64,000 nucleotides of DNA from an uncultured Thermoplasmatales archaeon (GCA_964541025.1 CAZIOW010000001.1:1242-65241), one strand, 5' to 3'. Shown: positions 9,516 to 46,088, counted from the first letter of the stretch. Notes: generated from the letters alone by a model not told the origin. A program made the numbers and translations.

Positions 9516-9806
9516 GTGATAAACGTGGCAGATAACAACACTATTTTCATCGGGAAAAAACCGACAGAAAACTATGTTTTCAGCACTATAATGCTCTTTA
9601 CAAATGGAGCAAGTGAAGTATCAATAAAGGCAAGGGGAATGGCTATAAAGAGGGCAGTAGACGTTGCTGAAATAGTAAAGAGCAGAATGGAATCAATGAT
9701 GAAAACCCCAATAAAATATGGGGACATTAAAATAAGCACAGAAAAGGTTCAGAGAGAGGATGGAGAAAGCAACGTTTCTTCAATTGAAATTGTGCTGAAG
9801 AAGTAG
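9516..9806 (+). CDS. albA: DNA/RNA-binding protein Alba
   Basis: NTIFIGKKPTENYV...ISIKARGMAIKRAVDVAEIVKSR is a typical Alba signature. GTG start. Confidence 0.9.
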   Translation: MINVADNNTIFIGKKPTENYVFSTIMLFTNGASEVSIKARGMAIKRAVDVAEIVKSRMESMMKTPIKYGDIKISTEKVQREDGESNVSSIEIVLKK

Positions 9807-9832
9807 ATGGTGCAACCATCTACAAATTTTTT
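9805..9832 (+). terminator. hairpin plus oligo-T after alba
   Basis: Perfect 7-bp stem AGATGGT(gca)ACCATCT at 9805-9821, overlapping the TAG stop and followed by a T6 run at 9827-9832. Oligo-T tracts are the known archaeal termination signal. Confidence 0.5.
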
Positions 9833-9857
9833 AAATTCATTATCTTTTAACATAGAG

Positions 9858-9889
9858 ATTTATTATCCCCAGATAATTATCTTCCGGGG
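9858..9889 (+). promoter_or_regulatory. putative tgtA promoter region with palindrome
   Basis: ATTTATTA (9858-9865) lies 33 nt before ATG 9898. It is followed by CCCC-AGATAATTATCT-tcc-GGGG (9867-9889), whose 12-bp core is a perfect palindrome. Confidence 0.3.
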
Positions 9890-9897
9890 AAAGGCAA

Positions 9898-11688
9898 ATG
9901 TTTCAATTATCACACAGGGATGGTTTAGCAAGGATTGGAGAAATTACTATAGGCAAAAGAAAATTGAAAACACCCACAATACTTCCAGTTATACACCCAT
10001 TCAAACCAGAACCCTGGTTATCAGAAATTAAAAAGTTAAAAATCGAAGGTATAATAACAAATTCCTACATACTCAAAAAAGGCAATTACAGGGCTGATAT
10101 AAATCTACACGATTATCTGAATTATGATGGAATAATAATGACAGACTCTGGAACATTCCAGGAGCATATGTATGGAGATATACAGGCAAGCAACAGGGAA
10201 ATGATAGAATTCCAGAGCGGAATTGGTTCTGATATCATCACTATAAGAGATGTGTTTTCTGAGATTGATCACAGCAGGGATGAAGTTAAGATGGGTATGG
10301 AAACCACCTACCAAAGGGGGAAAGAGGCAAGTGAAATTTCTAACGGCTACCTTGCACTTCCAGTTCAGGGCGGGCTGTTTCCTGATTTGAGAGTGAGAAG
10401 TGCAGAACTCATGCAATCAATTGGCGGGGAGTATTATCCTATAGGTGGTATTGTCCCCCTAATGGAGAGGTATAGATATTCAGATGTGATAGAGATTATT
10501 TTAAATTCAAAAATAGGTCTGAAAAGTGCATCAGTGATTCATGCATTTGGAGCTGGCCACCCAATGTTCTTTCCTTTACTATTCCTGGCAGGGGTTGATG
10601 TAGTTGACTCGTCAGCATACATCAAATATGCAAGAGAGGATAGAATCATAGTAGATACTGGTACAATTGAGCTTAAAGAAATTGCAGAGGAACTCCCACC
10701 TTCGCCTTACTTCGACGATATATCGCTCAAAGAGTTAATACAGATGAAGGAAGATGAACGGAGGGATACAATAGCCAAACATAATTTATACCTCACAGTT
10801 AAGGAAATTTCAAAGATAAGGGAGGAAATAAGGCAGGAAAATCTTTGGAACTATGTAGAATACAGATCAAGATCACATCCCTTGCTCCTTGAGGCGTACA
10901 GGAAATTATTATCATTTTACGATTTTCTTGAAAAATATGAATCAAGATCAAAAAAATCACCAGTATTCTACACAGGACCAGAAACTTTCGACAGGCCGCT
11001 GATTAGAAGGTTTGTTGAAAAGGAATCCATTGTTGGGAATTTCACAGAGGAAATAAGGAAACCGTATTCATATTTCCTAGATGAACCGGTGGAAGCGGTA
11101 AAAACTCCATTTGGTAATATCTCACTATATATGGATGAGACATATCCCGTGGCCCAGTCTCTGTTCCCAGGGGAATATTATGAGAAAGATTTTGATATAG
11201 CTAAATTCAACAGACCAGAATGGGATAGATACCTTAAAATGAAAGTAAATCATATTTTCAAGTATCAGTTCGGGAAAGGACTGTTTGAAATCATACCAAT
11301 GGAAAGAATAGAATTGCTCAGAAGCAAGAACACAGGTAAAATAAGGAATGTTATTCTGGATAGCAATATTCTTTTATCAATGAGAGCATCCGACGGATTA
11401 TTTAGTATTAACCTGAACAGCTCAAGACTGATACACGATAATTTTCCATATCCAAAGCACAGGATTATAGTAGACAGTGAAGTCATAGATTTCATCAGGG
11501 AAGGAAAAAATGTGTTCAGCAAATTCATCTGCGATGCAGATGAAGGATTACGCCCTGGTGACGAGGTGATAATTGTGGATGAAGATGATGACCTGATAGC
11601 CTATGGGAGGACCCTGTTGAACAGAAAGGAAATGACTGAATTCAAACAGGGAATGGCAGTAAAGAACAGGATAAAGAGCAAGGAATGA
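9898..11688 (+). CDS. tgtA: archaeosine tRNA-guanine transglycosylase (ArcTGT) with C-terminal PUA domain
   Basis: N-terminus MFQLSHRDGLARIGEI. Catalytic MTDSGTFQ, HAFGAGHP and VDSSAY motifs. C-terminal GDEVIIVDEDDDLIAYGRT matches PUA. The CxCxxC zinc motif is replaced by PPSPYFD. Confidence 0.9.
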   Translation: MFQLSHRDGLARIGEITIGKRKLKTPTILPVIHPFKPEPWLSEIKKLKIEGIITNSYILKKGNYRADINLHDYLNYDGIIMTDSGTFQEHMYGDIQASNREMIEFQSGIGSDIITIRDVFSEIDHSRDEVKMGMETTYQRGKEASEISNGYLALPVQGGLFPDLRVRSAELMQSIGGEYYPIGGIVPLMERYRYSDVIEIILNSKIGLKSASVIHAFGAGHPMFFPLLFLAGVDVVDSSAYIKYAREDRIIVDTGTIELKEIAEELPPSPYFDDISLKELIQMKEDERRDTIAKHNLYLTVKEISKIREEIRQENLWNYVEYRSRSHPLLLEAYRKLLSFYDFLEKYESRSKKSPVFYTGPETFDRPLIRRFVEKESIVGNFTEEIRKPYSYFLDEPVEAVKTPFGNISLYMDETYPVAQSLFPGEYYEKDFDIAKFNRPEWDRYLKMKVNHIFKYQFGKGLFEIIPMERIELLRSKNTGKIRNVILDSNILLSMRASDGLFSINLNSSRLIHDNFPYPKHRIIVDSEVIDFIREGKNVFSKFICDADEGLRPGDEVIIVDEDDDLIAYGRTLLNRKEMTEFKQGMAVKNRIKSKE

Positions 11689-15196: not shown

Positions 15197-17433
15197 TTCT
15201 TTCTTATTTTATAAGGCTCAATTCTGAAAAGTTTCTCCTCACCATTCACACCTGTGAATAGTTCAGAGGTATATCCTAAAAGGAATATATCATCACCGAA
15301 TATTTCCTTCATTCTTTCTTCACTACCTTTGCTTCCCTCCAGAACAAACCTTGATTGTGTCTCTGAGAAAAGGAATGTATCGCTTCTCATTCCAAAGGCA
15401 GATAAATCGATGTCCACTCCTATTCCGGAACCAATTGTCATCTCGGCAAGAGCAACAGCCAAGCCACCGTCAGATATATCGTGAGAAGAAAGGATGAGGC
15501 CATCATTCCAGGCCTTATGGAATTTTGCTATTCTTGTTTTAAGTGTTAGGGGGTCAGAATTTGGCACATTACTATCACGGAATTTTCTGATTCTGGAATA
15601 AAGGGTACCCCCCATCTCCGGATAGGGGAATCCTATCATATACACAGGATTTTCCAAGCCTTTAAAATCAGGAGTAAGTGCTCTTTCTAAGTTGTCAATT
15701 TTTCCAACAGCAAGGATTGTTGGAAGAGTGGGGATTCTACTCTTCCCAGTCTGGTTGTAGAATGATACATTGCCTGATACATAAGGTATTTCAAGGGAGG
15801 ATGCTGAATCCCTTAATCCAGAAAGCATGGAAATGAATTCCCCCATTACCTCGGGTATCTCTGGATTACCCGCATTCAGGCAGTCTGAAAATGCAATAGG
15901 CGTTGCACCTGAAGATACAATATTCCTGACTGCCTCATCAACTGCAGCCTTTGCACCTCTGAATGGGTCTATTTTAGAATAGAAAGGATTTGATCCATGG
16001 GATATTGCAATTCCCTCCTTCCTGTCCCACGATGGTCTTATGATCGAGGCATCAGTAGGTCCTTCGAAGCCGACATTCCCAGAAAAAGGTCCAACGACCG
16101 TGCTTCCTCTTACTGTATGGTCATACTGTCTTACAGCAAACTCCCTTGTTCTAACATTAACATTTCCAACCATTTTAAGAATTATAGTCCCGATATTATT
16201 TGGGTAACTGGGAAGAAAACTTTCCCTTGAATGTTTAACGGCTCTGTAAGATCTCTGATAAAGAGGAGAAGACGTCAGGAATTCAAGGTCCATATCAAGT
16301 ACCTTCTGACCTTCATAATATATTTTAAGATCCTTTCCAAGCCTGCTCTCACCTATTATTTCTGCGGTGATATCCCATGAATTTAAAACTTCCATTACCT
16401 TGTTCACATTTATTTCCTCTACAGCAAGCATCATCCTCTCCTGGCTTTCTGAAATCCATATTTCCCAGGGTTTCATATCGGATTCTTTGAGAGGTACTTT
16501 GTCAAGATAGATGTCCCCTCCCATACCTCCACTCAAAAGCATCTCCCCTATAACGCTGCTGAGGCCACCTCCCCCAAGGTCCTTGAGAGCATATAAAAGC
16601 TTCCTTTCATTTGCTTCAAGTACAGCATGAATAAGCGGTTCCTTGATAATGGGATTTCCAAGCTGGACGGTAGTGGAATCTTCTCCCCCTTTTTCAAGAG
16701 TCTTTGATGCCATATTGACTCCGTGTATTCCATCCCTCCCTGTTTTTCCCCCTGCGATAATAAGTTTCAATCCCGGCTTGTCAACAGATGCTTTCATCAC
16801 ATTGCTTTTTTTAACTACCCCTACGCATCCAACATTAACTAGGACATTTGGAACAAAATCTCCGGAATAAAAAATACCCCCCGAGACCGTGGGTATTCCA
16901 ACCCTGTTCCCGTAATCCCTTATAACAGATATTACACCACTTTCTATGAACTTCGGGGATGGAAAGCCTTTCTTGTTCCTATCCCCAAAGTAGAGCACAT
17001 CTGTGACAGCGACTGGCTGTCCGCCCATGCTAAGGACATCTCTCAGTATTCCCCCAACTCCGGTCGCAGCCCCCCCATATGGTTCTATAGCTGACGGGTG
17101 ATTATGACTCTCCATTTTCAGAGCTATCGCCAGATCATCTGTGAAATCAACAAGACCCGCATCTCCCTGTGATAATATCTTATTCGGTGCTATTCCAAAA
17201 ATGAATTTTTTTAGAAAAATCTTGGAGCTTTTGTATCCACAGTGCTCACTCCAGGCCTGTCCTAGAGCTTGCAATTCAACATCTGTTGGATTTCTATTTA
17301 GGAAGGAAAAGTAGCTCTTTATCCTCAACATTTCTTCAGCTGAAAGCCCAAGGTTATAATTTTTTGATATTCTATCCAGTTCTTTTTTTCCAGAATTTAA
17401 AATATCGATTATTTCAAAAAATTCAGAATTCAT
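15175..17433 (-). CDS. purL: phosphoribosylformylglycinamidine synthase subunit PurL
   Basis: WSEHCGYKSS, MESHNHPS and GGAATGVGGILRD. The track start is 17454. I prefer ATG 17433 because AGGTGGAG lies 5 nt upstream. Confidence 0.9.
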   Translation of the reverse strand: MNSEFFEIIDILNSGKKELDRISKNYNLGLSAEEMLRIKSYFSFLNRNPTDVELQALGQAWSEHCGYKSSKIFLKKFIFGIAPNKILSQGDAGLVDFTDDLAIALKMESHNHPSAIEPYGGAATGVGGILRDVLSMGGQPVAVTDVLYFGDRNKKGFPSPKFIESGVISVIRDYGNRVGIPTVSGGIFYSGDFVPNVLVNVGCVGVVKKSNVMKASVDKPGLKLIIAGGKTGRDGIHGVNMASKTLEKGGEDSTTVQLGNPIIKEPLIHAVLEANERKLLYALKDLGGGGLSSVIGEMLLSGGMGGDIYLDKVPLKESDMKPWEIWISESQERMMLAVEEINVNKVMEVLNSWDITAEIIGESRLGKDLKIYYEGQKVLDMDLEFLTSSPLYQRSYRAVKHSRESFLPSYPNNIGTIILKMVGNVNVRTREFAVRQYDHTVRGSTVVGPFSGNVGFEGPTDASIIRPSWDRKEGIAISHGSNPFYSKIDPFRGAKAAVDEAVRNIVSSGATPIAFSDCLNAGNPEIPEVMGEFISMLSGLRDSASSLEIPYVSGNVSFYNQTGKSRIPTLPTILAVGKIDNLERALTPDFKGLENPVYMIGFPYPEMGGTLYSRIRKFRDSNVPNSDPLTLKTRIAKFHKAWNDGLILSSHDISDGGLAVALAEMTIGSGIGVDIDLSAFGMRSDTFLFSETQSRFVLEGSKGSEERMKEIFGDDIFLLGYTSELFTGVNGEEKLFRIEPYKIRKKWKEGYS

Positions 17434-17659
17434 CAAGCTCCACCTTGCAATCATTTATCACAGGGTTGGCAAGCAGCTTAGAACAGAACTCTTTCCCATC
17501 CTGAAGAGTTGCATTTTCCATTTCGATATAATATATTTTTCCGGTTCTCACATTCCCTATACTTTCATAACCAAGCAATTTTAAAGCCTTAATTACTGAC
17601 TGTCCTTCAGCATCCTCAACACTTTTCTTTAGAGTAACAGTAATTTTAAGAAGAGGCAT
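17423..17659 (-). CDS. purS: phosphoribosylformylglycinamidine synthase subunit PurS
   Basis: 78 aa. The VTLKKSVEDAEGQSVIKALKLLGY pattern. Lies immediately upstream of purL. Confidence 0.85.
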   Translation of the reverse strand: MPLLKITVTLKKSVEDAEGQSVIKALKLLGYESIGNVRTGKIYYIEMENATLQDGKEFCSKLLANPVINDCKVELDEF

Positions 17660-17785
17660 GATGGTTAATCAACTGTAAGTAAATAATCTTTTGAATTATA
17701 AGAAAATAAGAGTTTAATTTGAAGGGAATCGCGGCTCCTAATGATTTTATTAACAAATAAGAGAAAACAGGCATCTTAGGTCTTT

Positions 17786-37834: not shown

Positions 37835-38803
37835 TTACTTTTTCTTCCTGTAAGCTACTACTCCGAGCGCTGCTATTATGATTATTATTGTTATGAGCAC
37901 TCCTGCGATTATGGACTCGGAATTAAGTCCAAGGAATGAGCTGGTTGAACTGCTTTCAACCACGAGTGTATTTGCCGAATTCACTTTGGCATATCCTGTG
38001 ACTGCGATGGTGGAAGAAGGATCATAATGAATTGAAATAGAATAGTTTCCAGAACTGTTTTCTAAAGTTCCAAACATCTGATTAGTGAAATTCCAGGAAC
38101 TGTTATACCATATATCTCTGCCATAGTTGTATGAGAATATCGTGGTATTGGTGGACGAATTATATTCCCTGTTCCACTGACTCAGGGGTACATTGAAAAC
38201 CTGGAAGTCAAGTGAATGCATATCTTTCACACCGCTAGGAATACCCCAGTTGTGGCCTCCAAAACCATCTCCCATGAACATCTGGTCACCCATATCGTTA
38301 ACATCGATTTCACGGCCATTTATTGTGCTCATCAATTCTCCCTGCACCCTGAAGGCTCTCCAGCTCATATCAATGATATAGTGACCATTGACCTCTTTCA
38401 ATATATTAGTGATGCTCATTTCCAAGGTCAGATTCCTGTAAACCTTCATTGTAGTATTATTTGCGACTGCTTTGTAGCTGTAAAGTATAGTTGCGTTAAC
38501 CACGTGGGGAGTGAATCCACTTGTGCTGTTATTGCTCTCATTCTCTATCGACTGATCAAGAATACCGATGGAACTGGAGGTTATGGTACTAGATCCGTTA
38601 AAGTAAAAATTCTTTCCTGACAGAGCCTGTGATAGCATAGAACCATTTGGGTAGTTTAGAACCATCACATAGTTGCTTGTTGCATTTACATCCGCAACAT
38701 TGGTATGCGTATTGATGGTAGCATTGATCTGTGCCCCGCTCGCGAGAGGCACCATGGCCATTGCCAAGACCAATATGCCTACCATAATAGTTAGCGATCT
38801 CAT
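37835..38803 (-). CDS. surface glycoprotein-like protein (signal peptide, C-terminal TM anchor)
   Basis: Signal peptide MRSLTIMVGILVLAMAMVPLASGA. More than a dozen N-x-S/T sequons. C-terminal IIAGVLITIIIIIAALGVVAY followed by RKKK. Confidence 0.7.
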   Translation of the reverse strand: MRSLTIMVGILVLAMAMVPLASGAQINATINTHTNVADVNATSNYVMVLNYPNGSMLSQALSGKNFYFNGSSTITSSSIGILDQSIENESNNSTSGFTPHVVNATILYSYKAVANNTTMKVYRNLTLEMSITNILKEVNGHYIIDMSWRAFRVQGELMSTINGREIDVNDMGDQMFMGDGFGGHNWGIPSGVKDMHSLDFQVFNVPLSQWNREYNSSTNTTIFSYNYGRDIWYNSSWNFTNQMFGTLENSSGNYSISIHYDPSSTIAVTGYAKVNSANTLVVESSSTSSFLGLNSESIIAGVLITIIIIIAALGVVAYRKKK

Positions 38804-38886: not shown

Positions 38887-39828
38887 TTATGGATACTTCT
38901 CTACGGATTTTATCTCCAGTTCCGACTCCTCAAACTCCTGCTCGCTTATCCTTGAAATTGACTTGAAGAATGAATCAAGGGTGTTTTTTTCAAATACCAT
39001 TGAAACTTTTGCCCTGTCACCCTTCAGTTCCATTTCATAACTGAAAGGAAGGTCCAGATCTGATGTTTTATAAGGATCAATGAGTATCCCCTGTTCAGGG
39101 ACTTTAGCGAAAAATATTTTCTTATCGGAATTTGCTTTCTTTATCTTCTTGTAATCCATTGCAACCTCTGCAAGTTTCTTTTCCCATTCTGTACTGTCGC
39201 CCGAGACTTCATAGAAAAGTTCTAGATAACCAGCGATATCCACATACCTTGTTGCTACTTCAGCCTCCAATCCCTTCACCTTCTTCGCAACTTCCAGAGT
39301 AAAGGAATTTTTTGGTATTACATAAAAAACAAGTTTTCTCATTTCAATTGATTTTATATTCTCCTTTAGCCACTCCTCGTTGCTCCTTACAGGGCCCAGG
39401 TAATCAATGCTGAAATAATCTCTCTTGTCTGCATCCTTAAAGATAACACGTTGCAGCTGTGCTGAGAATTCATTGAAATATTTTATCCTCAGAATCACGT
39501 CGCCATCCCTCACAAGGACCGGAATCTCAATGAAGGCACCCTTCACGCTCAGTAGCATATCAATCATTTCACATATGTAACATTCCTCAGATATTCTGAC
39601 TGTCACTCCTGCTTTTCTTTCTGTCATTTCGATTTCCTTTGCCCTTATTGCCTTTCTGAGGTCGTCCATTGACTTCCCTTCACGGAGATATGTTACGGAG
39701 GCCTCAGTATTGTTGCCTCTCTTGTAAAAGTTCAGGAATCCGTTAAATCCATAAACCTTTGAAAAATAGCTGATTGGAGATCTCATATCCTGAAATCTGA
39801 CAATCATTTCACTATCAAATTCAATCAT
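38887..39828 (-). CDS. hypothetical protein (313 aa), no recognisable domain
   Basis: Long ATG-started ORF with normal-looking composition, preceded by a 244-bp AT-rich intergenic region. No motif I can name. Confidence 0.6.
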   Translation of the reverse strand: MIEFDSEMIVRFQDMRSPISYFSKVYGFNGFLNFYKRGNNTEASVTYLREGKSMDDLRKAIRAKEIEMTERKAGVTVRISEECYICEMIDMLLSVKGAFIEIPVLVRDGDVILRIKYFNEFSAQLQRVIFKDADKRDYFSIDYLGPVRSNEEWLKENIKSIEMRKLVFYVIPKNSFTLEVAKKVKGLEAEVATRYVDIAGYLELFYEVSGDSTEWEKKLAEVAMDYKKIKKANSDKKIFFAKVPEQGILIDPYKTSDLDLPFSYEMELKGDRAKVSMVFEKNTLDSFFKSISRISEQEFEESELEIKSVEKYP

Positions 39829-40492: not shown

Positions 40493-42247
40493 ATGCACAT
40501 TGCCGTTATAGACAATGATAAATGTCATTTTAAAAAGTGCAGGCAGGAGTGCCAATACTACTGTCCTCCAGTAAGAAATGGAACTATGACTGTTGAGTTT
40601 GGAGAAGACGGATATCCTGTTATTCACGAGGATATTTGCCTTGGATGCGGTATATGTGCTCACAGATGTCCCTACCAGGCAATAAAAATAATTGGGCTTC
40701 CAGAAAGACAGGCTGGAAAAGAGGTTCACAGATACGGCGAGAATGGATTCGCCCTGTATGGCATTCCTTCAATGGAAGTTAAGGGTGTCATAGGTATTCT
40801 CGGGCAAAATGGTACAGGGAAAACAACAATACTGAACATATTAACGGGAAATATCATACCGAACTTCGCCAAGGAAAATAAAAGCAAGGAAGAAGTAGTC
40901 AAGAAATACAAAGGTACATATTTAGGTAAGTATCTTGAGGATATTTATTCTGGGAAGAGCAAAATTTCACTAAAGCCACAGTATGTTGACCTCATACCCA
41001 AATATTATTCTGGAACAGTTCAGCAACTGTTGTCACAGTATGGCAATGGTGTTTCAGAAACACTACAGAAACTAGGAATGGAAGGGATAGAAAATCAGGA
41101 TGTAAAGATTCTCTCAGGTGGTGAACTGCAATCAGTGGCCATTGCAGCTGCGCTGCTTAAAGAGGCAGACATATACTTCTTCGATGAACCTTCTTCATAT
41201 CTGGATATTTCTCAGAGGCTGAGAGTCGCGTCCATTATTAGGGATCTGGCCCAGAGAAAGAAGGTGATAATTGTAGAGCATGACCTCGCTATACTTGATT
41301 TCATCACAGATAACATATACCTTACCTACGGTGAATCAAGAGCCTATGGTATCGTCAGCAATGCATATTCAACAAGGCAGGCGATAAACACATATCTGGA
41401 AGGTTTCATAAAACAGGAGAATGTGAAATTCAGGGACTATCAGATAAAGTTCGTCAAGAAGCCCCCGGAGATAGATCAGAGCATCGCCCCATTGATATCA
41501 TGGGGAGAAATGCACAAGGGATTTGAAAAATTTTCACTGAAAGTGAATCCAGGTTCCTTAAGACATGGACAGGTAGTTGGTGTAATCGGGCCAAATGGTA
41601 CTGGAAAATCAACCTTCGTGAAAATTATGGCAGGTGAAATGAAGCCTGATGATTATGAATTCAACATGCTCCTTAAAACATCCTATAAACAACAAAGTCC
41701 CCCATCAGAGTACAATGAAACAGTTCTGGAATTCCTTGAAAGGGAAATAGGTGATAGAGCAGGAGAGAACGATTTCAAGAATGAAATCATGAGACCTCTG
41801 AATCTGGAAACAATAGGGGAAAATCTAGTCTCTGAATTGTCAGGTGGGGACCTGCAAAAGGTTCACATTGCTAAAACACTGGGAAAGCCAGCGGATCTTT
41901 ATGTACTGGATGAACCTTCTGCATATCTTGATTCAGATCAGAGAATGATTGTTGCAAGAATGCTTAAGAGATTTACAGAAAATAACAAGAAAACAGCTCT
42001 TGTAGTGGATCACGATATTTATTTCATTGACTTAATAGCAACCTCTCTGATGGTTTTCAACGGGGAAAGGGGAAAGTGGGGCGAAACATATGGACCTATG
42101 AATATGAAGGATGGAATGAACCTTTTCCTGAAGAATATTAATCTAACATTCAGGAGAGATGAAAACACCCTCCGTCCAAGGATAAACAAGCCTGATTCTA
42201 GAATGGATCTTGAACAGAAAAAAGCAGGAGAATATTATTACTATTGA
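40493..42247 (+). CDS. abce1: ribosome-recycling ATPase ABCE1 (RNase L inhibitor homolog)
   Basis: N-terminal 2x[4Fe-4S] cysteines (CRQECQYYCP, CLGCGICAHRCP). Twin ABC cassettes (GQNGTGKTT/LSGGELQ and GPNGTGKST/LSGGDLQ). Confidence 0.93.
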   Translation: MHIAVIDNDKCHFKKCRQECQYYCPPVRNGTMTVEFGEDGYPVIHEDICLGCGICAHRCPYQAIKIIGLPERQAGKEVHRYGENGFALYGIPSMEVKGVIGILGQNGTGKTTILNILTGNIIPNFAKENKSKEEVVKKYKGTYLGKYLEDIYSGKSKISLKPQYVDLIPKYYSGTVQQLLSQYGNGVSETLQKLGMEGIENQDVKILSGGELQSVAIAAALLKEADIYFFDEPSSYLDISQRLRVASIIRDLAQRKKVIIVEHDLAILDFITDNIYLTYGESRAYGIVSNAYSTRQAINTYLEGFIKQENVKFRDYQIKFVKKPPEIDQSIAPLISWGEMHKGFEKFSLKVNPGSLRHGQVVGVIGPNGTGKSTFVKIMAGEMKPDDYEFNMLLKTSYKQQSPPSEYNETVLEFLEREIGDRAGENDFKNEIMRPLNLETIGENLVSELSGGDLQKVHIAKTLGKPADLYVLDEPSAYLDSDQRMIVARMLKRFTENNKKTALVVDHDIYFIDLIATSLMVFNGERGKWGETYGPMNMKDGMNLFLKNINLTFRRDENTLRPRINKPDSRMDLEQKKAGEYYYY

Positions 42248-42320
42248 GCAAGAGTGTTATGGATTTTTTATTAGAAATATGACCTAAACTTTTATAAATG
42301 ATGATATTTTTTAGATTCGG

Positions 42321-43622
42321 GTGAATTTTTTGACACGAAAAGTTGCCATGGTGGCTGGAGGAGTCACGTATTTTTCAAAAGCAAGGAAGGACAAAACTCA
42401 GGAAGAACTGGTGGCAGAGGCTGCACGAATGGCCCTCTATGATAATGACATAAATCTGGACAAATCTGAAATCGATGGTTCAGTTACTGGATATTTCTCG
42501 GATCATTTTGAGCAGCAGCTTAAGTTTGGAGCAATAATTACGGATTACCTTGGACTGAATCCAAAGAGCCACGTGAGGATAGAAGGGGGAGGGGCAACCG
42601 GCGGTCTTGCAATAAGGGAGGGTTACGCACAGGTAGCTTCCGGATTGCTTGACGTTGTCATGGTCATAGGGTTCGAGAAGATGTCAGAGGTGAATACAGC
42701 CAAGGGAAATGAATTCATAGCTCTTGCATCGGATACAGACTTTGATTTTCCTGTAGGTGGATACTACAGCGGATACTATGCATTGATGGCTAGGAGGCAC
42801 ATGGAAGAATTTGGAACTACAGAGGAGCAGATGGCAATGGTAGCTGTAAAAAACAGAAACAATGCGCAGCACAATAAATTTGCACAGACAAACCCAAAGA
42901 TGAATCCATATGGCATGAAGGATGGGGGTTCCATAAAGGTAGAGGATGTTCTGAAATCACCATACATAGCATATCCCCTGAAAAGACTCGATATATGCCT
43001 GATGAGCGATGGGGCATCCGTGGCAATACTTGCATCAGAGGAAAAGGCGAAGAAGATCACAGATACCCCTGTATGGATTACTGGGAGCGGAGCTGGCTCA
43101 GATGCAATGAGAGCAGGTGACAGGCCAAGAGATAAAAAGAGCCTCCCGTTATTACCGCACGAAAAACCTGAATGGTACAAGAATCTCGATTATCCCGGTG
43201 TTCACTCATTCCGTGCTGGAAGGGAAGCTGCGAGGCAGGCTTACAAGATGGCCGGCATAACAAATCCGCTGAAAGAACTGGATGTTATAGAGTTACATGA
43301 TGCGTACACAAGCAGCGAAATTCAGACTTACGAGGATCTTGGACTTGCCAAGTATGGAGAGGGTGGGAAACTAGTTCAGGAAGGTCAAACACTTGTTGAC
43401 GGAGAAGTTGCTGTTAACCCTTCGGGAGGGCTCATTGGAAACATGCACGCTGTAGGTGCTACCGGAATAATGCAGGCTGTTGAGGTTTTCTGGCAGCTGC
43501 AGGGAGTGGCTGGTAAATTCCATGGATCAGATAAGACCCAAGTCAAGGGAGCAGAAACAGGTCTCATTCATTCCCACGCAGGAACCGGAACTTATGTCAC
43601 TGTATCTGTCCTGAGGAGGTGA
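42321..43622 (+). CDS. thiolase-fold (SCP2/archaeal-thiolase-like) protein lacking both catalytic cysteines
   Basis: Aligns by eye to SCP2-type thiolases: DYLGL...RIEGGGATGG (expected VEnaCaSGG), VIGFEKMS, ELHDAYT (expected HDCF), VNPSGG and NMHAVGATG. The start is ambiguous: GTG 42321, TTG 42330 (GGGTGA lies 5 nt upstream) or ATG 42348. Confidence 0.8.
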   Translation: MNFLTRKVAMVAGGVTYFSKARKDKTQEELVAEAARMALYDNDINLDKSEIDGSVTGYFSDHFEQQLKFGAIITDYLGLNPKSHVRIEGGGATGGLAIREGYAQVASGLLDVVMVIGFEKMSEVNTAKGNEFIALASDTDFDFPVGGYYSGYYALMARRHMEEFGTTEEQMAMVAVKNRNNAQHNKFAQTNPKMNPYGMKDGGSIKVEDVLKSPYIAYPLKRLDICLMSDGASVAILASEEKAKKITDTPVWITGSGAGSDAMRAGDRPRDKKSLPLLPHEKPEWYKNLDYPGVHSFRAGREAARQAYKMAGITNPLKELDVIELHDAYTSSEIQTYEDLGLAKYGEGGKLVQEGQTLVDGEVAVNPSGGLIGNMHAVGATGIMQAVEVFWQLQGVAGKFHGSDKTQVKGAETGLIHSHAGTGTYVTVSVLRR

Positions 43623-43627
43623 AAAAT

Positions 43628-44074
43628 ATGACAGAGGTATTTTCAATAGATCCGCTGATTATAAAGAATGATTATTATATAGAATACAGGCATTCTTATG
43701 GCAAGACAAGCCCATTTTTCACTAATCTTGCAAAGGGCAAGATCATGGCAACACACTGCGAGCATTGCAACAAGACATACCTTCCCCCAAGGAATGACTG
43801 CCCCCAGTGTCTTAGGGAGACAAAATGGGTCGAGATATCAGGCAAGGGGACAATACACACATTCTCAACCATGTACTTTGCAGGAGAAAAATTCCTGAAA
43901 GATGTGCCATTTTACTTAGCATATGTGGAACTTGAAGGGGTGGACACACTATTTCTAACAAGAATAAAGACAAAGAATCCAGAGAAACTTAAAATAGGAA
44001 TGAAAATAAAATTAAAAACAGCAAGGGATCCTGAATGGAGAGCCACTGATGTCTGGGCGGAACCAGACGAATGA
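43628..44074 (+). CDS. DUF35 Zn-ribbon / OB-fold protein
   Basis: CEHCNKTYLPPRNDCPQC zinc ribbon, then an OB-fold region (WVEISGKGTIHTFS...YLAYVELEG). SD GGAGGTGA (43615-43622) lies 5 nt before ATG 43628. The track start 43619 is GTG. Confidence 0.85.
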   Translation: MTEVFSIDPLIIKNDYYIEYRHSYGKTSPFFTNLAKGKIMATHCEHCNKTYLPPRNDCPQCLRETKWVEISGKGTIHTFSTMYFAGEKFLKDVPFYLAYVELEGVDTLFLTRIKTKNPEKLKIGMKIKLKTARDPEWRATDVWAEPDE

Positions 44075-44075
44075 T

Positions 44076-44912
44076 TCAATATTTATAAAATCCCTCCCCA
44101 CTTTTTTTACCTAATTTTCCTGCTTCAACCATTTTTCGCAAAATTGGTGCAGCCCTGTACTTTGGATCCTTGAATGATTCATACAATGTGTCCATTATAT
44201 TGACCACTGTATCCAACCCTATGAGGTCCCCAAGAGTCAAGGGCCCCATTGGAAAATTACCTCCGAATTTCAATGCCTTGTCTATGTCCTCTTTTGATGC
44301 AAGACCCTCTGCATACTCGAAAGCCCCCTCATTAACTAGCATCACTATAATCCTTGTGGTGACAAATCCCGGGGAATCGTTGACCACAACGTATTCTTTC
44401 TTTATTGTTTTCACGTATTCTACGCTCTTCTGTATAGTCTCCTCTGATGTCCTGAGTCCTTTGATGATTTCAACAAGATTCATCAGTGGAACGGGGTTGA
44501 AGAAATGAATTCCAATGAATCTGTCCGCTCTCCTAGTTGCGGCTGCAAGTGATGTTATGCTGATTGAAGACGTGTTTGATGCGAGAATCGCATTTTCCTT
44601 CAAATGAGGTTCCACCTTGGCATATATTTCTCTCTTCATTGCAAGGTTTTCAACTACCGCTTCAATTACTATGGAACATTCCCCGAATTCTCTGTAATCC
44701 TCCGTGAACTTTATCCTTGAAAGGATTGATTCTTTCTTCTCGGTTATTATTTTCTTTTCCGTCAGCTTGTCAATGCTCTTCCCTATTGAATTAACTGCTT
44801 TCTCATAGATGGACCTGCTCACATCTGTTACAATAACTTCATGTCCTGCCACTGCAGATACCTGAGCTATTCCACTTCCCATTATACCCAATCCTATTAC
44901 TCCTATTTTCAT
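44076..44912 (-). CDS. hbd: 3-hydroxybutyryl-CoA / 3-hydroxyacyl-CoA dehydrogenase
   Basis: MKIGVIGLGIMGSGIA Rossmann motif, SNTSS, and the GIHFFNPVPLM and GFVTTR motifs. Confidence 0.9.
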   Translation of the reverse strand: MKIGVIGLGIMGSGIAQVSAVAGHEVIVTDVSRSIYEKAVNSIGKSIDKLTEKKIITEKKESILSRIKFTEDYREFGECSIVIEAVVENLAMKREIYAKVEPHLKENAILASNTSSISITSLAAATRRADRFIGIHFFNPVPLMNLVEIIKGLRTSEETIQKSVEYVKTIKKEYVVVNDSPGFVTTRIIVMLVNEGAFEYAEGLASKEDIDKALKFGGNFPMGPLTLGDLIGLDTVVNIMDTLYESFKDPKYRAAPILRKMVEAGKLGKKSGEGFYKY

Positions 44913-46088
44913 TCATATCACCTCAATGGCTATTGAATAGGCCCCTCCTCCACCGTGACATATTGTTGCCAGGCCTCTGTGGAGAGACATGTCTTCCAGT
45001 GCCCTTAGCAATGTGATTGTTATCCTTGCGCCAGAAGCTCCAAGGGGGTGGCCCATAGCAACTGCGCCGCCCCTGACATTGAATCTGTCCCAGTCAGCAC
45101 CAAGACCCTGCATTACTGCCAATGAAGCAATGGAAAATGCTTCATTATGCTCTACCAGATCAAACTGTTTTATGTTAAGGTCGAGTTTTTCCATCAGTCT
45201 TTTGGAGGAAGGAACGGGAGAATAAGGGAAATCAAATGGGTCCATCGAAGTTGTATCAACTCCAAGAATCCTTGCCCTTTTTTGAAGTCCATATTTTTTG
45301 ACAGCATCCTCGCTTGCTAGAACAACCGCCGCTCCCCCGTCGGAAAGCTGCGAGGAATTTCCTGCAGTGAGTATTCCGTCCTTTGCGAAGGCAGGTTCAA
45401 GTTTGGAAAGCTGTTCCTTTGAGGTTTCCCTTATACCTTCATCGAAATCAAGTCCATCTATTGGAATAATCTCCTTCTTGAACAGCCCTTTCTTAGTGGA
45501 ATCCATAGCCCTTCTGAAGCTTTCAAAAGAGAAATCGTCTGCCATTTCCCTGGTTATACCGTGCTTCCTTGCCCATTCATCCGCTATGGATCCCATATGC
45601 CTGTGATATTTGAAATCCCAGAGACCATCATTTATCATAGCATCCATTACTGGCCTCGAGGGGTTGAGTCTCTTATCCCCCCACCTAAAACTTGAATCCA
45701 GTATGAAGGGGGAATTGCTCATGCTTTCCATTCCACCTGCAATCATCAGATCTCTTTCTCCAAGTTTTATTGATCTGTAAGCATTGGCAATGGAAAGCAT
45801 TCCTGATGCGCAAACCATGTTTACAGTGGAACCTGATGATTCCACAGGAATTCCGGCCAATATTGCCGCCTGTCTTGCAGGATCCTGACCAAGTCCTGCA
45901 CTTATAACATTTCCCATGACTACTTCTTCCACCTTCTCTTTAGGAATACCTGCATCTTCTATAGCCCCCTTGATTGCAAAGGCACCAAGATCAGTTGCGC
46001 TGAATGATTTCAATCCCTTCCCATACTTGCCTATGGGAGTTCTTTTCAAACCTACTATGTAAACATCACTCACGGAAACACCCCTCAT
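44913..46088 (-). CDS. acetyl-CoA C-acetyltransferase (canonical thiolase II)
   Basis: Nucleophile VNMVCASGM, GHPLGASG, and the C-terminal ICHGGGGA base Cys. Its stop abuts the hbd start. Confidence 0.9.
   Translation of the reverse strand: MRGVSVSDVYIVGLKRTPIGKYGKGLKSFSATDLGAFAIKGAIEDAGIPKEKVEEVVMGNVISAGLGQDPARQAAILAGIPVESSGSTVNMVCASGMLSIANAYRSIKLGERDLMIAGGMESMSNSPFILDSSFRWGDKRLNPSRPVMDAMINDGLWDFKYHRHMGSIADEWARKHGITREMADDFSFESFRRAMDSTKKGLFKKEIIPIDGLDFDEGIRETSKEQLSKLEPAFAKDGILTAGNSSQLSDGGAAVVLASEDAVKKYGLQKRARILGVDTTSMDPFDFPYSPVPSSKRLMEKLDLNIKQFDLVEHNEAFSIASLAVMQGLGADWDRFNVRGGAVAMGHPLGASGARITITLLRALEDMSLHRGLATICHGGGGAYSIAIEVI

Follow-up and report, generated by a model that had tools for sequence, protein, structure and literature searches.

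A thiolase-fold protein without catalytic cysteines and its DUF35 partner form a conserved pair in archaea and bacteria

The window analysed here, a 64,000 nt stretch of DNA from an uncultured Thermoplasmatales archaeon (GCA_964541025.1 CAZIOW010000001.1:1242-65241), carries a gene for a protein of the thiolase superfamily without catalytic cysteines, called THL* below, and directly behind it a gene for a DUF35 protein. The two genes are a two-gene operon encoding a probable heteromeric enzyme, with the DUF35 gene translationally coupled to the first. At the position of the thiolase nucleophile THL* has a glycine, and because this glycine is invariant across the whole clade of related proteins, THL* cannot be a canonical thiolase; judged from its sequence, it is incapable of covalent thiolysis. 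The initial annotation of the window had proposed that the pair may be an aldolase or lyase acting on an acyl-CoA, or a non-catalytic scaffold, rather than a thiolase, and the exclusion of a canonical thiolase is borne out. Cleavage of a carbon-carbon bond by histidine-based chemistry is the activity tentatively favoured.

THL* matches the Pfam families Thiolase_N (2.5e-17) and Thiolase_C_1 (4.2e-32). An AF2 model built with 47 sequences (pLDDT 88, pTM 0.92) gave archaeal thiolases and the cysteine-less protein ST0096 as its best PDB matches in Foldseek (7yvy, 6esq and 4yzo), with a probability of 1.00 and TM values of 0.88-0.94 for 7yvy and 6esq. The protein belongs to the thiolase superfamily and has the five-layer alpha-beta-alpha-beta-alpha fold of the archaeal/SCP2-type. 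The closest solved structures are the archaeal acetoacetyl-CoA thiolase (6esq/6et9) and PFC_04095 of P. furiosus (7yvy), found by phmmer at 3.6e-57 and 9.5e-51 and occupying Foldseek ranks 1-6. These thiolases show 32-35 % identity to THL* and share with it the histidines of HD-x-F and GHP, the NPSGG motif and the type of DUF35 partner. They differ in having the nucleophilic cysteine (glycine in THL*), the cysteine of HDCF (alanine in THL*, but also in 7yvy) and N-[VI] in place of S-H, and in lacking a 23 aa insertion.

The substitutions are located in the first two of four catalytic loops (Table 1). In the phmmer alignments RIEGGGATGG stands opposite KIEAACASGG of 7yvy and RVEAACASGS of 6esq, and ELHDAYT stands opposite EVHDCFA of 6esq. 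An alignment by eye had already placed the loss of the nucleophile at Gly91 and that of the acid/base cysteine at Ala328; both positions were exact, and the alignments based on hidden Markov models agree, to 7yvy and 6esq in the first case and to 6esq in the second. They also reveal no cysteine at any catalytic position, the sole cysteine of the protein (Cys226) being outside the catalytic loops. Gly91, which faces a cysteine in 37/37 true thiolases compared, is the decisive change. Ala328 is the weaker criterion and alone is no proof of lost function, because 7yvy and several other representatives keep the nucleophilic cysteine yet read HDAF.

The motifs VIGFEKMS and NPSGG and the histidine of the GHP equivalent, listed as retained in the initial annotation, are present and conserved. 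The histidines of HDxF and GHP (oxyanion hole 1) are in place as His326 and His376, and the THL* clade and true thiolases have N366, G369, G370 and H376 as common conserved residues. The fourth loop reads H-S-H-A-G-T-G in the clade, compared with H/Q-N-[VIL]-G-G in true thiolases. Manual inspection suggests that Ser418 takes the position of the CxG cysteine of type II thiolases; the BLASTP match between THL* and the type II thiolase of the window is too weak to fix the alignment of this loop. The length of THL* had been put down to a single insertion of about 40 residues at ~262-300, which is not what the alignments give: the net insertion is 23 aa (residues 270-292), with others of 11 aa at 193-203 and 6 aa at 400-405 relative to true thiolases. 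The 270-292 segment is gapped in >80 % of true thiolases, and within the clade its residues L277, L278, P279, E281, Y286, Y291 and P292 are invariant or nearly so.

Conservation was assessed in a set of 121 close homologues; the 120 closest database clusters are at 59-92 % identity. Gly91 and His376 are each found in 121/121, His326 in 120/121 and Ala328 in all but one of the 120 closest clusters, and Asp327 is essentially invariant. The same pattern at the catalytic positions is kept in a second set of about 160 loci (79 from GTDB species representatives and 80 from metagenomes), in both archaea and bacteria. The archaeal carriers are Thermoplasmata, Bathyarchaeia and Asgard lineages (Jord-, Frey- and Atabeyarchaeia), and the bacterial carriers are Deferrimicrobia/'Deltaproteobacteria', Chloroflexi, Peptococcaceae/Desulfitobacteriaceae, Carboxydothermus and Actinomycetota. 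By this comparison the loss of the cysteine is ancient and the clade is widespread across archaea and bacteria. Between the window gene and its orthologues (83-93 % protein identity), the proportion of nonsynonymous differences (pN) is 0.05-0.11 and that of synonymous differences (pS) is saturated at ~0.8, a pN/pS ratio of about 0.07-0.14; the clade is under purifying selection.

When 27 clade members were compared with 37 cysteine-bearing relatives, the residues F59, H62, G90, G91, F132, G147, Y149, R264, P292, P316, A328, S418 and H419 were found to be invariant and clade-specific, while E88, H326, D327, N366, G369, G370 and H376 are common to the clade and true thiolases. Conservation peaks in the four catalytic loops, at ~100 % versus a mean column identity of 62 %, a pattern that points to a pocket which was remodelled and stays under selection.

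The best family match of THL* is NCBIfam NF004982 / PRK06365 ('thiolase domain-containing protein', an equivalog without assigned function), which it hits over its full length (residues 4-432) with 608.6 bits, below the curated cutoff of 695 bits. Orthologues of ~60 % identity pass the cutoff (T. acidophilum 854, C. pertinax 731 and a Deferrimicrobia-like bacterium 728 bits), and the core of the clade is therefore this curated family without function; Bathyarchaeial and Asgard members reach only ~450 bits. The NF004982 orthologues have a similar length (~420-430 aa) and the same motifs, but the window protein reads GNMHAVG for ACGHPVG and carries the extra 11 aa insertion at 193-203. By motifs and synteny it is a divergent member of the NF004982 clade. 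Literature searches covering DUF35 with isobutyryl-CoA mutase (Icm), cysteine-less thiolase-like proteins and the Thermoplasma 'sterol carrier protein X-related' protein found no characterisation of the clade and no paper linking it to an Icm-type mutase.

The clade is one of several. Many archaeal-type thiolase homologues without the catalytic motif, probably with other functions, were described by Hoshino and Gaucher (PMC6107057), and among 150 representatives at 50 % identity several independent cysteine-less subclades, with Gly, Asp, Ser or other residues at the nucleophile position, occur in the DUF35-associated family. One of them includes ST0096 of Sulfolobus tokodaii (4yzo; Foldseek rank 5, 30-31 % identity), an archaeal paralogue that likewise lacks the nucleophilic cysteine, but has serine at this position and HDM for HDA, lacks the insertion (373 aa) and falls in a different cysteine-less subclade from THL*. 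No described function was found for ST0096. Given the HDAF of 7yvy and the serine and HDM of ST0096, non-canonical motifs are common in archaeal DUF35-type thiolases. A Candidatus Atabeyarchaeum chromosome (L080:8144-11781) carries two cysteine-less thiolase-like/DUF35 pairs in tandem. The first of these is more degenerate (EAVGATGG, VYDMSTI, no GHP histidine, and HVESGYG for HSHAGTG), which suggests a duplication followed by further loss of catalytic-loop residues.

The DUF35 protein of the window matches zf-ChsH2 (6.5e-9) and OB_ChsH2_C (4e-15), both above the Pfam cutoffs. Its rubredoxin-like zinc ribbon is complete (Cys44, 47, 58 and 61; nt 43757-43810) and precedes an OB fold. Among PDB entries, the DUF35 scaffold of the M. 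thermolithotrophicus complex of thiolase and HMG-CoA synthase (HMGCS) ranks first, at 2.3e-12, ahead of the DUF35 domains of the aldolases Sal and Ltp2 (hits include 6esq_E, 9myr_B, 6ok1_B and 3irb); a search for homologues of the window protein returned close relatives only. A DUF35 gene lies directly 3' of THL* in all loci with enough contig, and natural THL*-DUF35 fusions occur (P0126, 752 aa; P0165, 559 aa). The pair probably assembles as alpha2-beta2, by analogy with all thiolase-like/DUF35 complexes of solved structure.

Two further observations concern the end of the pair. On an I-plasma AMDU3 contig (L028:10001-11746), THL* and DUF35 are one open reading frame, which is either a natural fusion or the product of an assembly frameshift or lost stop. 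On Thermoplasma acidophilum-type contigs (L001/L002), the DUF35 gene overlaps at its end with a NUDIX hydrolase gene (9754-10218), and the two may share a transcript. Some NUDIX enzymes hydrolyse CoA and acyl-CoA.

Expression signals can be read on both sides of THL* (Table 1). Its start is either GTG at 42321 or TTG at 42330, since the conserved residues R6 and V8 precede Met10, and the upstream TATA-like box is a probable archaeal promoter for a leaderless or short-leader transcript. The DUF35 start codon had been described as lying 5 nt after a Shine-Dalgarno sequence that overlaps the thiolase-like stop codon, and the coordinates agree; an alternative GTG at 43619 overlaps the THL* stop. 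Orthologous DUF35 genes begin 5-6 nt past the THL* stop. The arrangement looks like a leaderless first gene followed by a second gene driven by a Shine-Dalgarno sequence.

Table 1. Features of the THL*/DUF35 locus, numbered from the first nucleotide of the window.
Feature	Position	Strand	Basis
THL* gene, archaeal/SCP2-type thiolase-fold protein without catalytic cysteines, 433 aa	42321..43622	+	Pfam, NCBIfam, PDB alignments, AF2, Foldseek, pN/pS
First catalytic loop, E88-G-G-G91-A-T-G-G; Gly91 (42591-42593) for nucleophilic Cys, Gly90 for Ala	42582..42605	+	alignments
Clade-specific 23 aa insertion, residues 270-292, RDKKSLPLLPHEKPEWYKNLDYP; invariant clade-specific Arg264 before it	43128..43196	+	alignment
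Second catalytic loop, H326-D-A328-Y; Ala328 (43302-43304) for acid/base Cys of HDCF, His326/Asp327 kept	43296..43307	+	alignments
Third catalytic loop, N366-P-S-G-G ... H376, equivalent of GHP, MHA in this lineage; His kept	43416..43448	+	alignments
Fourth catalytic loop, H417-S418-H419, for H/Q-N-[VIL] of true SCP2/archaeal thiolases	43569..43577	+	alignments
DUF35 partner gene, 148 aa from ATG (43628)	43628..44074	+	Pfam PF12172 and PF01796
TATA-like box TTTATAAA, 23 nt 5' of the GTG start	42291..42298	+	read in sequence
Shine-Dalgarno-like GGAGGTGA, spans THL* stop TGA (43620-43622)	43615..43622	+	read in sequence
ABCE1/RLI (ribosome recycling ATPase), directly upstream of THL*	40493-42247	+	neighbour gene
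3-Hydroxybutyryl-CoA dehydrogenase (HBD), convergent with the pair	44076..44912	-	Pfam 3HCDH_N and 3HCDH; NCBIfam PRK05808
Type II acetyl-CoA C-acetyltransferase, genuine, both Cys (VNMVCASG, CHGGGG)	44913..46088	-	Thiolase_N 2.6e-78; TIGR01930 above cutoff

After DUF35, the commonest neighbour is a short-chain acyl-CoA dehydrogenase (ACAD), found in 29 of the 62 clusters formed at 90 % identity and in 9 of the 13 formed at 75 %. Acyl-CoA ligases are also frequent, and minimal cassettes of the form ligase-ACAD-THL*-DUF35 occur, e.g., in C. pertinax (sigma-54-controlled) and at L088. The pair directly follows the large and small subunit genes of a B12-dependent acyl-CoA mutase in ~31/79 genome loci and ~43/80 metagenome loci, roughly 75 of 160 in all. 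A recurrent bacterial operon has the order ThlII-HBD-ECH-ACAD-ACAD-CobA-IcmA-IcmB-THL*-DUF35-ACAD-MeaB-CoA transferase, and in Bathyarchaeia the two mutase subunits, THL* and DUF35 are followed by a genuine, cysteine-bearing thiolase and a second DUF35 gene. The pair thus lies in short-chain/branched-chain (C4/iso-C4-type) acyl-CoA catabolic clusters. HMGCS, whose adjacency would mark a mevalonate-complex operon, is not among the recurrent neighbour families of the ~160 loci, nor does it adjoin the pair in the window, as had been stated; the pair is not the mevalonate unit of thiolase, HMGCS and DUF35, from which its catabolic context also sets it apart.

The mutase linked to THL* always has Phe/Gln where methylmalonyl-CoA mutase (Mcm) has Tyr/Arg, and is without the Asp of 2-hydroxyisobutyryl-CoA mutase. 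We take Tyr/Arg to bind the carboxylate in the methylmalonyl-CoA enzyme, Phe/Gln to signify non-carboxylated branched acyl-CoAs, and Asp to be the mark of 2-hydroxyisobutyryl-CoA mutase; because of its signature, the linked mutase is considered Icm-like. The divergently transcribed second mutase in Bathyarchaeia is Mcm-type (Tyr/Arg). In these archaea (L055, L058, L059, L062-L064 and L078), two mutase large-subunit genes stand back to back ~1-5 kb from THL*, one Mcm-type (RQY...KEYVAR) and one Icm-type (RLF...KEYIAQ), and only one B12-binding small-subunit gene and one MeaB gene were detected nearby. THL* is no general requirement of the mutase, because the Icm cluster of S. lipocalidus, an isobutyrate isomeriser, was described without a gene of this type (PMC5017805). 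This and the many pairs with no mutase nearby weaken the idea that THL* is an obligatory Icm accessory factor.

We know of only two characterised enzymes, Sal and Ltp2, that combine a cysteine-less thiolase fold with dependence on DUF35. Both have glycine at the nucleophile position and are retro-aldolases that act after an ACAD and a hydratase, and Ltp2 performs a cysteine-independent carbon-carbon cleavage of 3-hydroxyacyl-CoA (PMC12329534). The steroid aldolase Ltp2-ChsH2(DUF35) (6ok1) resembles THL* in its fold, in the glycine, in the DUF35 protein (an adjacent gene or natural fusion for THL*, at the level of genes) and in the ACAD genes nearby. It differs in its catalytic tyrosines, Tyr294 (YDHF) and Tyr344, which are both histidines in THL* (His326 of HDAY/HDAF, and His376), in a DUF35 partner fused to a MaoC hydratase rather than free-standing, and in a steroid rather than a short-chain acyl-CoA context. 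The bile-acid aldolase Sal-Shy(DUF35) (9myr) and TbSLP (5ab4-7) also have a non-thiolytic fold in which glycine takes the place of the nucleophile (Gly89 in Sal), and Sal works with a DUF35 protein, but they read Y-D-C-[YF] (Tyr302 as base and Cys304 as acid) where THL* reads H-D-A-[YF]. Similarity to all of these is low. Ltp2 and Sal appear at Foldseek ranks 32 and 39 with 22-23 % identity, and the Sal and TbSLP structures span ranks 34-47 with 20-23 %. Catalytic residues and similarity ranking together rule out membership in the Ltp2/Sal family. The link to Ltp2-ChsH2 drawn in the initial annotation therefore holds as an analogy, in the missing cysteine and the DUF35 partner, but not as kinship. 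THL* is, on these alignments, of independent origin and nearer to archaeal thiolases than to Ltp2 and Sal. The concept of a cysteine-less thiolase fold with DUF35 was already known; what sets the clade apart is the residue set (H-D-A-[YF] and H-S-H), the independent origin and the short-chain, non-steroid context.

On this analogy, the function we lean towards, while holding it as tentative, is that of a cysteine-independent, histidine-based carbon-carbon lyase or aldolase whose substrate would be a short or branched 3-hydroxyacyl-CoA or the enoyl-CoA that the ACAD makes. The bacterial operons hold every ordinary step of beta-oxidation, and therefore THL*/DUF35 most likely adds a non-standard one. 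This expectation, the precedent of Sal and Ltp2, and the occurrence of His326 and His376 at the positions of the Ltp2 tyrosines are the reasons for the preference. The enzyme would handle a CoA-thioester enolate by acid-base chemistry and form no covalent intermediate with it. His326 and His376, filling the two positions of the Ltp2 catalytic tyrosines, would act with Ser418 and His419, and possibly His62, Tyr149 and Arg264, to deprotonate the beta-hydroxyl and protonate the leaving acyl-CoA enolate, while Gly90 and Gly91 would open space and give backbone NH groups, as Gly89 does in Sal. Retro-aldol cleavage of a 3-hydroxyacyl-CoA would yield a carbonyl compound and acetyl-CoA; alternatively, hydration and cleavage could be combined on the enoyl-CoA supplied by the neighbouring ACAD. 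Speculatively, the substrate may be a tertiary alcohol, for instance 3-hydroxyisovaleryl-CoA, which would be a natural choice because 3-hydroxyacyl-CoA dehydrogenase cannot oxidise it.

Some loci have neighbours of the expected kind. ECH is directly upstream of the pair in L111, L124, L125 and L128, and an aldehyde:ferredoxin oxidoreductase (AOR) gene lies ~0.8 kb past DUF35 in the Asgard loci L069-L071 (Jord-/Freyarchaeia). In L074, a divergent relative, MaoC directly follows DUF35 and AOR is ~4.6 kb downstream (15855-17765). The AOR adjacency would fit an aldehyde-forming lyase in these few lineages.

Several points weigh against a lyase. The catalytic tyrosine base of Ltp2 and Sal is absent from THL*, the cysteine acid of Sal is replaced by alanine, and we know of no precedent for a histidine-based mechanism in the thiolase fold. 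His326 and His376 would equally be retained in a true thiolase or a decarboxylase. The neighbourhoods are uneven: AOR and hydratase genes adjoin the pair in few lineages only, the pair stands alone in many loci (T. acidophilum, Chloroflexi), and the 64 kb window has no ACAD, ECH, mutase or AOR, HBD and a thiolase being the only related neighbours there. A more specific version, in which the pair is a previously unrecognised cysteine-independent lyase (e.g., converting 3-hydroxyisovaleryl-CoA to acetone and acetyl-CoA, or a hydratase-lyase) working with the Icm-type B12 mutase, is put forward as a doubtful proposal.

The strongest competitor of the lyase, though itself unlikely, is a pseudoenzyme scaffold: a THL*2-DUF352 core that has lost its chemistry, keeps CoA-ester binding and docking, and assembles or channels between the Icm-type mutase, ACAD and HBD/thiolase. 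Cores of DUF35 and thiolase are proven scaffolds in HMG-CoA synthase and archaeal fatty-acid synthase systems (bioRxiv 10.1101/2024.07.05.601840, PMC6996347, PMC12960953). The proposed archaeal fatty-acid synthase complex contains such a core, the ketothiolase/DUF35 pair Saci_1121/1120, which is like THL* in being a two-gene operon of a thiolase-type and a free-standing DUF35 protein, with multiple such pairs per genome; Saci_1121, however, is an active ketothiolase, while THL* is without the catalytic cysteines. Both cysteines being gone suits a scaffold, as does the fixed position of the pair between icmB and ACAD/meaB in many operons where no chemical step is obviously missing. A dead pocket, on the other hand, would not be expected to have the most conserved loops of the protein, nor the new invariant residues S418, H419, H62, R264 and Y149. 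The pair also occurs in isolation, or accompanied by nothing more than an ACAD or a ligase, and the S. lipocalidus Icm cluster manages without it.

A relocated active centre is an improbable alternative. Ser418 with His419 or His417 might serve as a nucleophile (thioesterase or acyltransferase), or the enolate chemistry might be 2-methylacyl-CoA epimerisation or enoyl-CoA isomerisation or hydration for the mutase pathway. The invariant H-S-H of the fourth loop, where type II thiolases appear to have their second cysteine, and the retained oxyanion-hole residues point this way, and the product of a mutase on longer substrates would have a chiral 2-methyl centre in need of epimerisation, cf. methylmalonyl-CoA epimerase. 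However, a relocated centre is without precedent in the thiolase fold and is a purely structural speculation, and the genomic context, with CoA transferases and ligases already there, calls for no thioesterase.

Decarboxylation of a beta-carboxy or vinylogous acyl-CoA (of the malonyl-, methylmalonyl-, ethylmalonyl- or glutaconyl-CoA type), with the His-His pair as catalyst and Arg264 binding the carboxylate, is more improbable again. His326 and His376 presumably correspond to the decarboxylation dyad of Cys-His-His condensing enzymes. In KSQ/CLF proteins the active-site cysteine is replaced by glutamine and the His-His dyad is retained; THL* retains the histidine pair but has Gly, not Gln, at position 91. 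The new invariant arginine, the Mcm-type mutase nearby in Bathyarchaeia and the moderate scores of neighbouring ACADs against non-decarboxylating glutaryl-CoA dehydrogenase would agree with a carboxylated substrate. The directly linked mutase, in contrast, has Phe/Gln and not the carboxylate-binding Tyr/Arg, and the neighbourhoods examined have no recurrent gene for a carboxylase, an epimerase or a biotin protein. Coupling of a methylmalonyl-CoA decarboxylase to Mcm is weakened in the same way, as the mutase upstream of the pair is Icm-type and the Mcm-type gene in Bathyarchaeia is the divergent one. The cysteine-less TbSLP shows malonyl-CoA decarboxylase activity, but it is weak, with a very low kcat of 0.005 s-1, and Sal has no such activity (PMC12329534).

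That THL* is still a thiolase, with CoA attacking the 3-keto group directly and no covalent intermediate being formed, or with a cysteine lent by a partner subunit, is highly improbable. The fold, the histidines, the CoA-type neighbourhood and the true archaeal thiolases as closest structures would allow it. Against this, Cys226 is not near the catalytic loops, the four cysteines of the DUF35 partner are zinc ligands, and Sal, with the same glycine, cannot thiolyse (PMC12329534). The window, Bathyarchaeia and the bacterial operons also have genes for genuine thiolases beside the pair, which would make a second thiolase redundant. Strain-specific decay or a sequencing error, which cysteine-bearing orthologues would have revealed, is ruled out by family-wide conservation and purifying selection: none of the orthologues carries the cysteine, the same substitutions occur in the 120 closest homologues and ~160 loci of two domains of life, the reading frame is intact, pN is far below pS and the AF2 model is confident.

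The host belongs to an I-plasma-related group of Thermoplasmata, with 99 % identity to the metagenome-assembled genome KMA_Bin17. HBD and thiolase II are the pair's conserved neighbours in the window as in the rest of the I-plasma lineage. The adjacency to ABCE1 is confined to this lineage and is held to be coincidental, and a link to translation was rejected; a translation-related role has been reported for the DUF35 protein Trf of Sulfolobus (PMC6996347). Farther upstream, on the minus strand, the window has a 313 aa open reading frame (38887-39828) and a gene (37835-38803) for a 322 aa protein rich in Asn, Ser and Thr, which has a signal-like segment at its N-terminus and a membrane anchor at its C-terminus and is probably a glycosylated surface protein.

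The THL* gene had been described as GC-richer than its surroundings, and its GC content of 46.9 % is indeed the highest of 41 long open reading frames in the window (mean 39.6 +/- 3.3 %). This is no sign of foreign origin. The GC content at third codon positions is unremarkable (43.3 %), and the surplus stems from Gly/Ala-rich codons; Gly and Ala make up 21 % of the protein, equal to the neighbouring true thiolase, the second GC-richest gene. The high GC is due to the amino-acid make-up of the protein and not to horizontal transfer.

Cysteine-less thiolase-fold proteins, including members of the THL* clade in JGI annotations, are routinely labelled 'acetyl-CoA acetyltransferase'. Such labels inflate the predicted capacity for beta-oxidation, butyrate and mevalonate metabolism in metagenome-based models of Bathyarchaeia, Asgard archaea and Thermoplasmata. 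Once found, the reaction of THL*/DUF35 would represent a new enzyme, and possibly a pathway step, in short- and branched-chain acyl-CoA metabolism, and would also show how often the thiolase fold was repurposed. A thermoacidophile member, such as the window protein or its orthologue in T. acidophilum, lends itself to expression; in related complexes, subunits on their own are insoluble. If the pair is a lyase working with an Icm-type mutase, it would provide a route of branched-chain acyl-CoA and amino-acid catabolism without ATP or biotin in anaerobic archaea (Bathyarchaeia, Asgard and Thermoplasmata) and bacteria, and the thiolase fold would have been converted to an aldolase for a third, independent time, with histidines in place of tyrosines.

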